Shown one piece after another: positions 1,324-2,139 of a stretch of DNA of 9,831 nt. Numbering within the stretch: the first letter of the stretch is position 1; every line of letters begins with the position of its first letter. Source of the DNA: a virus (taxonomy: Duplodnaviria > Heunggongvirae > Uroviricota > Caudoviricetes); the IMG/VR virus record IMGVR_UViG_2645727901_000016, one strand, 5' to 3'. The notes below the pieces were generated by a model. That model ran no database searches, was not told the DNA's origin, and was given only the letters and a program-made list of their open reading frames with translations. The translations under genes were made by a program, and so were the position numbers.

Positions 1324-2139
1324 TTAACCGCGAAAGCCTGGAGGGATCTCGCTGTCTGGTTCTGGTACTGCGTTAACGTCCCTCTGCTGCGTTCTCGCTG
1401 GCTTTGTCCTGGACAGTTGAACACTGCGCGCCAGTTTCTGCTGCCACTGGTCGTGATGGAATGCTTTGCCCTCGGCTTTCCAGTACGTGATGAAATCTGC
1501 CAGTTCAAATGGCGTCACATCGGTTTTAAGGTTTACTCCCCATAGCGCAGCTCGTTTGGTGAAATCAGGATCCGGCGTCCAGCTATCCGGCATAGTGAAT
1601 TTACCCAGTGAACCGGAACCTCCTGGTGGGACATATCCATCAATCACGGAATTTGTTGCATGGGGATCTGGTTTGCCACCTCCGGAGTTATCCACAGGCT
1701 GATTTTTCGCTTCGCCTATGTGTGGGGTTTTATCTTTTAGATCTTCTCTTCTCTTCTCTTCTCTGGTCCGCTTTTTGTCCGCTTCTGATGCGGACGCTTT
1801 GCGGACATTTCTCTTCCTGTCTGCGTCCTGTGCTCGACGCTTGGCAGACTGCCCGTTATGGGCTTCAAAGCGCGGCATTACTAGGCTTTCGCCTTCTTCT
1901 TCCAGCCATCCGACAGCCATCATTGCACGCGCGAATCCGGGGAAGCCGATCAGGTCGTCGAGAGTCTCCGCACTGTATCCGTCAAGAAAACCGTCAACAG
2001 AGTGGACATCGAAAAGACACCATGCGGAATGTAGTCCGCCAACTATCCGCAATCTGTCCGCTTTCAATGCGGACGCCATGCGGACAACTTTAGGGTGCGT
2101 GTGCAGGTCGGCACGCATCTTGATCCAGTCACCGGCCAT
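1324..2139 (-). CDS. phage replication protein with a DnaT-like C-terminal domain (primosomal protein I-like) and an N-terminal replication-initiator-like domain
   Basis: The C-terminal ~90 aa ([14 protein letters not shown]...[30 protein letters not shown]...[19 protein letters not shown]) closely match the C-terminus of E. coli DnaT as I recall it. A K/R/E-rich linker precedes it. The N-terminal domain ([14 protein letters not shown]...) resembles phage replication/replisome-organiser proteins (DUF1376-like, tentative). Overlaps the phosphatase gene by 11 nt. Confidence 0.85.
1742..1764. repeat. pentanucleotide microsatellite (TCTTC)4 plus TCT inside the replication gene linker
   Basis: Direct reading: tcttc tcttc tcttc tcttc tct. 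On the minus strand it encodes part of the REEKRRED linker. Confidence 0.9.
1766..1806. repeat. iteron-like cluster B: GTCCGC, GTCCGC, GCGGAC, GCGGAC at 10-13 bp spacing
   Basis: Hexamers start at 1766, 1778, 1791 and 1801: two direct copies followed by two inverted copies. Lies within the replication gene. Confidence 0.6.
2024..2085. repeat. iteron-like cluster A: six GTCCGC/GCGGAC-type half-sites at 10-13 bp spacing
   Basis: GCGGAa 2024, GTCCGC 2035, aTCCGC 2045, GTCCGC 2056, GCGGAC 2069, GCGGAC 2080. Lies within the 5' part of the replication gene. Confidence 0.6.

Follow-up and report, generated by a model that had tools for sequence, protein, structure and literature searches.

A probable lambda-like replication origin within the initiator gene of an epsilon15-like temperate phage

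The replication initiator gene of an epsilon15-like temperate phage probably houses, inside its own coding sequence, a lambda-like replication origin made up of two clusters of the half-site GTCCGC and its complement GCGGAC, a homopurine tract, a short A+T-rich stretch and a DnaA box, a reading drawn from sequence comparison. The window analysed, meaning the whole stretch of DNA, is 9831 bp long, and its features are collected in Table 1. It is absent from the complete genomes of E. coli, which is therefore not the host. Across hundreds of related phages, the sequence comparison finds that the clusters and the tract are kept constant at the level of the DNA. A first-pass annotation had put forward positions 1766–2085 as a candidate origin and initiator-binding array; comparison with homologues supports the candidate, but the extent was too short, as the purine tract and the DnaA box had been missed, and because these belong to the element beyond 1766–2085 it extends to about 1688–2085. 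No paper on the origin of the epsilon15-like (SPN1S/Uetakevirus) phages was found in the literature searched, nor was a description of the origin of the larger initiator family, which comprises 7332 clusters at 50% identity and has no Pfam model for its DNA-binding domain. Origin annotation in thousands of prophages would stand to be helped.

Table 1. Features of the putative origin and of the gene that contains it (window coordinates)
Feature	Position	Strand	Details
Replication initiator gene	1324..2139	-	271 aa; N-terminal winged-helix domain (predicted), charged linker, C-terminal DnaT-like domain
Predicted winged-helix domain, coding region	1855..2112	-	aa 10-95; structure prediction
DnaT-like C-terminal domain, coding region	1327..1611	-	aa 177-271, tail included; homology to DnaT
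Cluster A	2034..2085		No strand; four exact half-sites: A1 2080-2085, A2 2069-2074, A3 2056-2061, A5 2034-2039
Weak site A4	2045..2050	+	ATCCGC, one mismatch
Weak site A6	2024..2029	-	GCGGAA, one mismatch
Cluster B	1766..1806		No strand; four exact half-sites: B1 1801-1806, B2 1790-1795, B3 1777-1782, B4 1766-1771
Homopurine tract	1742..1764	-	23 nt, AGAGAAGAGAAGAGAAGAGAAGA on gene strand; gene nt 376-398
Short A+T-rich stretch	1728..1741	-	TCTAAAAGATAAAA on gene strand, contains GATC; directly after the tract
DnaA box	1688..1696	+	Exact consensus TTATCCACA; follows the tract

Arrangement of the half-sites

The exact hexamer, in either orientation, occurs nine times in the whole window, and eight of the nine copies lie inside the replication gene. 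The total is not unusual, as 5.4 ± 2.2 copies are expected in shuffles, but the clustering is: eight of nine sites fall within 320 bp, with a binomial P of ~1e-11, or ~3e-10 when corrected for the number of spans. Synonymous codon shuffling within the gene gave a mean of 2.0 sites and P(≥8) = 5e-5, and when codons were resampled from the codon usage of the window the mean was 1.1 and 0 of 20,000 draws reached eight. The clustering claimed in the first-pass annotation therefore stands, being significant in the codon-preserving permutations by which the hexamer count was checked.

Each cluster has the layout GTCCGC-N5-GTCCGC-N7-GCGGAC-N5-GCGGAC/T, and the two are in the same reading frame; in cluster A, sites A2 and A3 together make up a palindrome of 19 bp, which reads GTCCGC-N7-GCGGAC on the gene strand. 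Where ten half-sites had been described, eight are exact and those at 2024 and 2045 carry one mismatch each and are weakly conserved; the starts given as 1778, 1791 and 2035 were each off by one (the true ones are 1777, 1790 and 2034), while 1766, 1801, 2056, 2069 and 2080 were correct. The spacing of 10–13 bp reported earlier agrees with the measured values, 11, 13 and 11 in cluster B and, with the weak sites included, 10, 11, 11, 13 and 11 in cluster A. The order of direct followed by inverted copies applies to cluster B, which runs direct-direct-inverted-inverted, but not to cluster A, which reads - + + + - - on the plus strand. Cluster B occupies the linker-coding region (codons 112–125, gene nt 334–374) and is proposed, from its sequence, to be the core initiator-binding array of the origin; cluster A lies 55–116 nt into the coding region.

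The units of the two clusters constitute the top direct-repeat family of the region, at 41 nt, 80% identity and 279 nt apart. An alignment of about 33 of 45 positions had been claimed for them, and the 33 matches were found, although over 48 positions and in the same reading frame. The mismatches number 4, 7 and 4 at codon positions 1, 2 and 3, which leaves the accompanying argument, that third positions are kept, a weak one. A promoter and terminator scan gave nothing exceeding the shuffle expectation.

Constraint on the DNA among homologous modules

The decisive evidence on where the constraint lies came from the homologues. Among 77 unique homologous modules, which are not independent samples because they were gathered by similarity to the module itself, synonymous diversity (piS) was 0.08 in cluster A, 0.08 in cluster B and 0.001 in the tract, against 0.35 elsewhere (Mann–Whitney P<1e-5). 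The amino-acid diversity of cluster B, on the other hand, was higher than that of the rest of the module (0.24 vs. 0.10). The suggestion in the first-pass annotation that the constraint is on the DNA is borne out by these piS values; homologues that keep the peptide and vary the hexamers synonymously would have pointed the other way, and the opposite was seen, with the hexamers and the tract being the least variable synonymous positions. In 144 unique modules, exact sites were present at A1 in 77%, A2 in 97%, A3 in 95% and A5 in 77%, and at B1 in 58%, B2 in 93%, B3 in 88% and B4 in 67%. The weak sites were rarely exact in the same modules, A6 in 2% (62% within one mismatch) and A4 in 3% (44% within one mismatch). 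Helical phasing is retained as well: of 331 distances between neighbouring sites of cluster B throughout the family, 308 are 11 or 13 bp. In the complete genome of the related phage SPN1S, the arrays account for 8 of the 16 hexamers and no other 100 bp contain as many as two; the clusters, like the tract and the DnaA box, occur nowhere else in that genome.

These results bear directly on the idea that the repeats arose by chance, or are a duplicated peptide, VRxASAxxADxxR, maintained by protein-level selection. The units do share a reading frame and encode similar peptides, as that idea would have it, but codon-preserving permutations give P=5e-5 or less, synonymous sites hardly change whereas amino acids do, and sister lineages alter the DNA motif together with the encoded residues (e.g., DGNA vs. 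DGHA), so that it is scarcely credible. The gene would instead show clearly how sites for DNA binding can determine the residues of a protein encoded across them.

This layout is retained across hosts with 47–68% G+C and is found in Enterobacterales, Pseudomonas, Burkholderiales, Xanthomonadales and some planctomycete and verrucomicrobial MAG contigs, although the MAG contig labels (Planctomycetota, Verrucomicrobiota, Mycobacterium) may be binning errors and indicate breadth only. Among sister lineages the identity of the half-site changes jointly in both clusters with the tract unchanged: both arrays carry GTCCGG in lineage L162, GTAACG in Rac (E. coli 442/2), TL-2011b and L163, and GTCACG or GTAGAC in other lineages. 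The N-terminal parts of the proteins are 64% identical within a half-site specificity class and 42% between classes. The winged-helix domain and its own half-sites would make up a portable specificity module, and the specificity classes found in nature, at least five in number, could be exchanged by experiment. The role of cluster A is uncertain, since some lineages lack it or have it elsewhere (L165; the GTAACG class, at nt 149–175).

The variety of arrays in the family also speaks to a role in the RNA, in which the nested inverted repeats would form mRNA hairpins affecting processing, stability or translation and the AGA-rich tract would be a translational pause. Both clusters can indeed fold as single strands (-12.6 and -16.7 kcal/mol, z -5.5 and -3.3), and the run of rare AGA codons described below would suit a pause. 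However, the 5-nt spacers on the two sides are non-complementary and vary freely without compensating changes, many arrays in the family are direct-only or have unequal numbers of direct and inverted sites (>>, <<, >>>, ><<), making a hairpin impossible, and Rfam gave no match at E≤1. As five-nucleotide repeats give the same peptide cycle in any frame, a codon-level reading of the tract is not required either, and a primary constraint on RNA is very improbable.

The purine tract, the A+T-rich stretch and the DnaA box

The homopurine tract begins one base past the last half-site of cluster B and is 100% identical in six phages of Salmonella, Klebsiella, Ralstonia and Pseudomonas; the exact tract was present in 141 of the 170 loci compared. 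Its arginine codons are AGA in 231 of 231 cases, compared with 20% elsewhere, and it carries three of these rare codons, two of them in tandem. In the SPN1S genome it is the sole homopurine run of at least 18 nt. Taken together, the tract and the A+T-rich stretch, the 37 nt that follow cluster B, have 70% A+T, with purines making up 89% of the sense strand, and the lowest G+C in the gene (37.5%) is at 1700–1759. Across the family, the 20 nt past the tract average 63% A+T, as opposed to 45% for the modules. On the strength of its sequence and placement, the 23-nt tract is proposed to be both the unwinding element and a module boundary. Unlike a classic unwinding element it is only moderately A+T-rich (local G+C 37.5%), an observation that counts against reading the region as an origin. 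Frame independence of the tract was considered as a separate line of evidence and rejected, as a 5-nt repeat gives the same cyclic peptide in all three frames.

An identical tract accompanies at least five half-site specificities, in sources as far apart as enterobacterial phages and planctomycete-binned contigs. This raises the tentative and rather doubtful notion that the invariant (AGAGA)4-5 homopurine tract is a previously undescribed universal origin element, independent of sequence-specific contacts with the initiator. Possible modes of action are a mirror-repeat H-DNA or an unwinding element; a purine-rich transcript forming a stable R-loop that might prime or open the origin, as a polypurine-tract primer does; or a run of rare AGA codons that might stall the ribosome after the DNA-binding domain has emerged, such that the nascent initiator could load in cis on its own template. 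The role of this universal 23-nt tract is directly testable.

The tract is also where homology among distant phages stops: directly after it the C-terminal parts differ widely, and the N-terminal module is also found alone, ending at the same point. An alternative is that conservation of the tract, and perhaps of the arrays, mainly preserves a shared junction at which phages exchange N- and C-terminal replication modules through homologous recombination, a mosaic boundary and not part of an origin. The exact end of homology before very different C-terminal domains, the solitary N-terminal modules and the RecT/RecE-type recombinases that these phages encode would all accord with such a junction. 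Weak selection for future recombination would nevertheless not be expected to freeze 23 nt, with every arginine as AGA, across hosts of 47–68% G+C; the helically phased half-sites and their joint change in both arrays would go unexplained; and in lambda the functional origin sits at just such a domain boundary. A junction as the main reason for conservation is thus quite improbable.

Returning to the tract as part of an origin, the DnaA box beyond it is the single exact one in the SPN1S genome (38.7 kb). In 46 of 146 unique modules a box occurs at a constant distance of ~45 nt beyond the tract, against a background of 1.7%, a figure to which protein-level conservation could contribute because the box is within coding sequence (P-V-D-N). 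The box is missing from about two thirds of the family, which counts against the origin reading.

The initiator protein and comparison with known origins

The initiator matches phrog_2509, "replication initiation protein", over its full length (E 1.6e-106, protein 1–271 on profile 1–277) and is 97% identical to the replication protein of SPN1S. Its predicted winged-helix domain is proposed to be the DNA-binding part. A Pfam scan of the whole protein returned DnaT alone (PF17948, aa 181–250, 64.5 bits vs. a gathering cutoff of 25), the N-terminal 133 aa having no Pfam family even at E≤10, and NCBIfam has no model for the N-terminal domain. The C-terminal domain matches the structure of the DnaT C-domain (PDB 6aep, E 5e-36) and is ~64% identical to Salmonella dnaT in tblastn; against the NCBIfam DnaT equivalog PRK02854 the protein scored 149.8 bits, below the cutoff of 201, over profile positions 86–179 only. 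Residues 177–271 thus resemble the C-terminal, ssDNA-binding domain of host DnaT, tail included; DnaT is primosomal protein I of the PriA restart pathway. The winged-helix domain and linker stand where DnaT has its N-terminal half, and the protein is a phage initiator and not a restart factor. The next gene downstream encodes a RuvC-like resolvase, and the SPN1S genome listing has no helicase, loader or primase gene. The DnaT-type C-terminus suggests how a phage lacking helicase and loader genes may recruit the host primosome to a defined site.

As to which protein binds, how the DNA is looped and melted and how the helicase is delivered, we infer the following course. Early transcription through the gene would lead to synthesis of the initiator, whose N-terminal winged-helix domain would bind the GTCCGC half-sites, dimers probably sitting on the central 19-bp palindromes, with additional subunits at the outer sites, which are offset by 11 bp and face the same side of the helix. 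Wrapping or looping of the DNA may join the two arrays, which are 279 bp apart, in one complex, and the resulting strain would open the adjoining homopurine and A+T-rich tract, possibly with the assistance of transcription and of DnaA at the nearby box. The opened strand would then be bound by the C-terminal domain, which copies the half of host DnaT that binds ssDNA and which would recruit host DnaB–DnaC; in this way primosome assembly would be origin-specific without a phage helicase or loader.

The intergenic region just downstream of the initiator gene (1203–1323) is A+T-rich (G+C 20–28%) and carries ATTACC-N5-GGTAAT repressor operators. It could in principle hold the origin, which counts against the reading preferred here. 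GC skew was judged uninformative for mapping the origin, as a change of skew would coincide with the divergent early operons. With the true origin placed elsewhere, for example in this region, the arrays might be operators for autoregulation by the initiator or another phage protein, through roadblock or repression. Protein bound at cluster A, so early in the coding region, would block elongation, and it counts for such operators that initiators of iteron plasmids commonly autoregulate; the 20–28% G+C of the intergenic region would suit an origin there. What the region contains, however, is repressor operators and not initiator-type repeats, and the arrays go together with two features for which autoregulation has no need, an invariant purine/A+T tract and a DnaA box. 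The arrangement fits ori-lambda in position and polarity. Autoregulation and origin function are not exclusive, and operators in place of an origin are unlikely.

The analogy with ori-lambda drawn in the first-pass annotation was upheld in position, polarity and the neighbouring purine-rich tract, and is reinforced by the joint change of half-sites, the DnaA box after the tract and the predicted winged helix. The lambdoid origin consists of iterons and an A+T-rich tract in the middle of gene O (PMC7466680). As in ori-lambda (lambda and the Stx phages P27 and 933W), the sites are repeated and dyad-symmetric, lie mid-gene between the parts for an N-terminal DNA-binding domain and a C-terminal host- or loader-interacting domain, and are followed by a purine-skewed, A+T-rich sense-strand tract (in lambda, 73% A+T with a 20-nt stretch containing 19 purines), the element being transcribed from the early rightward operon. 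The lambda iterons are at nt 349–433 of O and cluster B is at nt 334–374 of its gene, a positional match only. There, too, the N-terminal domain and origin act as a specificity module (PMC7466680).

There are also differences. No sequence relationship between the N-terminal domain and the Pfam O family (Phage_rep_O) was detected. In place of the four to six tandem 18-bp iterons of ori-lambda there are 6-bp half-sites arranged >><<, each cluster comprising one 19-bp palindrome with flanking half-sites 11 bp away and not four tandem 18-bp units. A second array lies 279 bp upstream, within the region coding for the DNA-binding domain; the specificity classes share an invariant (AGAGA)n homopurine run as their tract; an exact DnaA box adjoins it; and no P-type loader gene follows immediately downstream, the C-terminus being a DnaT domain. 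Plasmid iterons (the pSC101, P1, F, R6K and RK2 class) are 17–22-bp direct repeats outside the rep gene, and plasmid Rep proteins have two winged-helix domains. Likeness to iteron-type theta origins lies in the multiple copies of one motif in helical phase and in the DnaA box beside the proposed unwinding region, though in about a third of the family. No plasmid in PLSDB had the module; there were three distant matches, the best at 38% identity over 98 aa.

A related arrangement is seen in the Rac prophage, which has been reported to have an active origin, oriJ (PMC3945230). In MG1655, YdaU belongs to the DUF1376 proteins, its N-terminus being unrelated and its repeats different; DUF1376 was not matched by the initiator in Pfam, and BLASTP against MG1655 YdaU aligned the last 22 residues only. 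Rac YdaU of E. coli 442/2, by contrast, is a distant homologue (27% identity, E 3e-25) that shares the MA..WIK start, the HNG.S.K.RA motif and the C-terminal tail, and its gene is organised alike, having two arrays, here of GTAACG half-sites, and a CCAGAGGAAGAGGAAGA tract. Rac differs in its half-site, in the placement of the upstream array at nt 149–175 and in the DnaC-like gene, ydaV, that follows.

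Half-site arrays in the replication gene

The window covers the early region of a temperate podophage of the epsilon15 type (genus Uetakevirus), with 90-94% DNA identity to Salmonella phages SPN1S, 65FD, PAT1 and others; complete E. coli genomes gave no close match. Its 271-aa replication protein has a full-length match to PHROG 2509 ("replication initiation protein"; E 1.6e-106). The Pfam DnaT domain spans residues 181-250, and residues 177-271 correspond to the ssDNA-binding C-terminal domain of host DnaT (PDB 6aep, E 5e-36) with ~64% identity to Salmonella dnaT; only the second half of the DnaT equivalog model was matched, with a score under the cutoff. 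The annotation of the complete SPN1S genome lists no helicase, loader or primase gene, and its sole replication function is the homologue of this protein.

The first-pass annotation had proposed ten half-sites of GTCCGC/GCGGAC within this gene as a candidate origin. Eight proved exact, the other two carry one mismatch, and three start coordinates had been off by one. The clustering itself held: the nine exact hexamers of the window are an ordinary count (5.4 expected), and eight of them lie within 320 bp inside the gene (P ~3e-10, corrected). A codon-preserving permutation bore this out, as synonymous shuffling within the gene gave a mean of 2.0 sites and reached eight in 1/20000 trials, and codons drawn from the usage of the window never did. 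On the gene strand both clusters read GTCCGC-N5-GTCCGC-N7-GCGGAC-N5-GCGGAC/T, in 41-nt units of 80% identity that are 279 nt apart and share one reading frame. The claim that third codon positions are spared between the units fared poorly, with mismatches of 4, 7 and 4 at positions 1, 2 and 3.

Features of the replication region and its surroundings, with synonymous diversity where computed (rest of module, 0.35)
Feature	Window position	Codons	Synonymous diversity
Replication gene (minus strand)	1324-2139
C-terminal tail	1324-1359	last 11
Cluster A, exact hexamers	2034, 2056, 2069, 2080	18-40	0.08
One-mismatch sites	2024 (GCGGAA), 2045 (ATCCGC)
Cluster B, exact hexamers	1766, 1777, 1790, 1801	112-125	0.08
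Purine tract	1742-1764	126-133	0.001
Tract plus next 14 nt	1728-1764
Dam site GATC	1740-1743
DnaA box TTATCCACA	1688-1696
NinI-like metallophosphoesterase gene	2129-2803
Repressor gene	3532-4128
ATTACC-N4/5-GGTAA(T) palindromes	1206-1222, 1268-1284, 3445-3460, 3463-3478, 4186-4202, 4248-4264, 4324-4340

Eighty homologous loci were taken from IMG/VR and another 80 from GTDB genomes, and 77 unique modules were codon-aligned to compare synonymous diversity among sequences with an identical amino acid. The clusters and tract differ from the rest at P<1e-5 (Mann-Whitney), so that the hexamers are synonymously frozen, the opposite of the free synonymous variation that had been named as evidence against the proposal. 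Shared ancestry does not account for this contrast, which is drawn within one set of sequences. Amino-acid variation is higher in cluster B than in the rest (0.24 vs 0.10), because the spacers change and the hexamers do not. Arginine codons in the tract are AGA in 231/231 cases, against 20% elsewhere, and the layout is retained across hosts of 47-68% G+C. Chance and protein-level selection are excluded as sources of the clusters.

Numbered in gene order, the central palindromes are the best kept, with A2, A3, B2 and B3 exact in 97%, 95%, 93% and 88% of 144 unique modules, as against 77%, 77%, 67% and 58% for the outer sites A1, A5, B4 and B1; the slots of the two one-mismatch sites are exact in 2-3%. 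Distances between neighbouring sites are nearly always 11 or 13 bp across the family, which places the half-sites on one helix face. Although the window's own cluster copies can fold, site number and orientation differ among homologues (>><<, ><<, >><, >>, >>>, <<) and the spacers are non-complementary, which favours protein half-sites over a conserved hairpin and makes it very unlikely that the clusters act through RNA structure or a translational pause. A pause at the AGA run is possible as an added function.

Half-site classes and the initiator family

In diverged relatives the plan is kept and the half-site is altered, jointly in both arrays. Both arrays of locus L162 are built of GTCCGG; GTAACG is the half-site at nt 149-175 and directly before the tract in a Rac prophage variant (E. 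coli 442/2), phage TL-2011b and locus L163; and L164 has TGTCAC-N9-GTGACA at the linker position. L158, a Pirellulales-binned contig, has an iteron array of the classical type where cluster B would be, in the same linker: four 24-bp tandem direct repeats (1831-1926) that encode QRKSVPEV four times. Searching IMG/VR with the 23-nt tract as an exact query yielded at least 120 contigs, and in the 80 examined the tract is always abutted by the last half-site; the arrays upstream are of GTCCGC in 24 and of GTAAC in 22, and there are also arrays of GTCACG, GTAGAC, GTCCCG, GTCCGA and others. For 37 of these contigs an N-terminal ORF could be recognised and a half-site class assigned; here the same motif is usually repeated in the 5' part of the gene, and N-terminal domain identity is 64% within classes and 42% between them. 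The motif dictates residues (D-G-N-A in the GTAACG class, D-G-H-A in the GTCACG class).

As half-sites alter jointly in both arrays, a lineage-specific factor reads both, and the arrays are almost certainly functional DNA elements recognised by such a protein. Of lineage-specific proteins, only the gene's own product is linked to both. An AlphaFold2 model of its residues 1-133 is confident over 11-90 (pLDDT 87-96), and the predicted secondary-structure elements follow the winged-helix order (helix-helix-strand-helix-helix-strand-strand). The domain family comprises 7332 cluster representatives at E<=1e-3 (4115 at E<=1e-10), and in the best 150 matches the domain is nearly always N-terminal, in proteins of ~150-350 residues. 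In several lineages (loci L061, L082; proteins P0001, P0015, P0034, P0086) a stand-alone ORF of 133-139 aa ends directly after the tract, so the DNA-binding module and the C-terminal effector are separable into two genes.

The 11-residue C-terminal tail (compared with L169 4120-4977 and L167 1201-1989) is common to host DnaT, the Rac variant YdaU and MG1655 YdaU, the last having an unrelated N-terminus. It resembles a short motif for docking to a host replication protein, present in initiators of different families.

The purine tract and a candidate origin

A module made up of the gene's first 400 nt recurs in phages of Klebsiella (87% DNA identity), Ralstonia (79%) and Pseudomonas (70%), in which the gene beyond is unrelated. 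In a six-phage alignment both clusters are nearly invariant, the 25 nt directly after cluster B, CCAGAGAAGAGAAGAGAAGAGAAGA, are identical in 6/6, and similarity stops just beyond. That the tract and arrays mark a recombination junction would be consistent with this module boundary, but it leaves the phased half-sites and the absolute conservation unexplained and is quite unlikely.

The tract and next 14 nt have 70% A+T and, on the sense strand, 89% purines; they constitute the G+C minimum of the gene. The DnaA box recurs at the same offset in 46/146 unique modules (1.7% background), including SPN1S-type and epsilon15-type genes despite differing intervening sequence. Of the 16 hexamers in the 38.7-kb SPN1S genome, 8 fall in the two arrays, and nowhere else do two or more occur within 100 bp; apart from the tract the genome has no homopurine run of at least 18 nt, and the exact DnaA box occurs once. 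The arrays are probably part of a replication origin. A purely autoregulatory role, with the origin elsewhere, is unlikely, as it does not account for the tract and DnaA box, and the A+T-rich intergenic region downstream bears repressor operators instead.

In the proposed origin, the initiator would bind its own gene at both arrays through the winged-helix domain and assemble on the helically phased sites, perhaps bridging the arrays. The adjoining purine/A+T tract would then be opened, with DnaA and transcription assisting, and the DnaT-like domain would hold the single strand and recruit host DnaB-DnaC.

The Dam site has counterparts at homologous positions, and GATC follows the tract at no more than 30 nt in 44% of modules, compared with 19% of comparable segments; this could connect initiation with methylation or SeqA control. 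The tract opens with (AGAGA)4, 20 nt that make a perfect homopurine mirror repeat, a sequence type able to form an intramolecular triplex (H-DNA) under negative supercoiling, and the 5-nt repeat gives the same cyclic peptide R-E-E-K-R in all three frames.

Known in-gene origins and the neighbouring genes

An origin inside an initiator gene is a classical kind of element. The lambdoid origin consists of O-binding iterons and an A+T-rich tract in mid-O, two iterons and the tract being enough for unwinding, and O is also a single-stranded DNA binder (PMC7466680). The analogy with ori-lambda drawn at first reading proved apt: the four lambda iterons occupy nt 349-433 of gene O and are followed by ACACAAAAGACACTATTACAAAAGAAAAAAGAAAAGA on the sense strand, and cluster B occupies nt 334-374 of the window gene with the adjoining tract at nt 376-398. 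The likeness lies in design rather than descent. Unlike in lambda, the N-terminal 133 residues of the initiator match no Pfam family, and no P-like loader gene follows.

In the DUF1376-type ydaU of E. coli K-12 MG1655 a different set of mid-gene repeats, TGTTCAAAC and its complement in three to four copies (L169 4470-4620), is followed by an A-rich stretch; the RefSeq record of the region does not annotate the repeats as an origin. Such an arrangement suggests that the Rac origin oriJ may also be an in-gene origin. None of the papers that could be searched describes the family, the two-place arrays, the natural specificity classes or the invariant (AGAGA)n tract, and the RefSeq annotation of epsilon15, with repressor, IHF and other sites marked, has no origin feature in the corresponding stretch.

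Immediately upstream, the metallophosphoesterase gene, whose end runs 11 nt into the start of the replication gene, fills the slot held in epsilon15 by a cytosine methyltransferase, a mosaic exchange adjoining the conserved replication module. The seven palindromes of the window (0.03 expected) flank the repressor gene, with one pair between the replication gene and a RuvC-like gene. They are counterparts of the annotated "repressor, lysogeny" sites of epsilon15, and the operon downstream of the replication gene therefore seems to be under direct repressor control.
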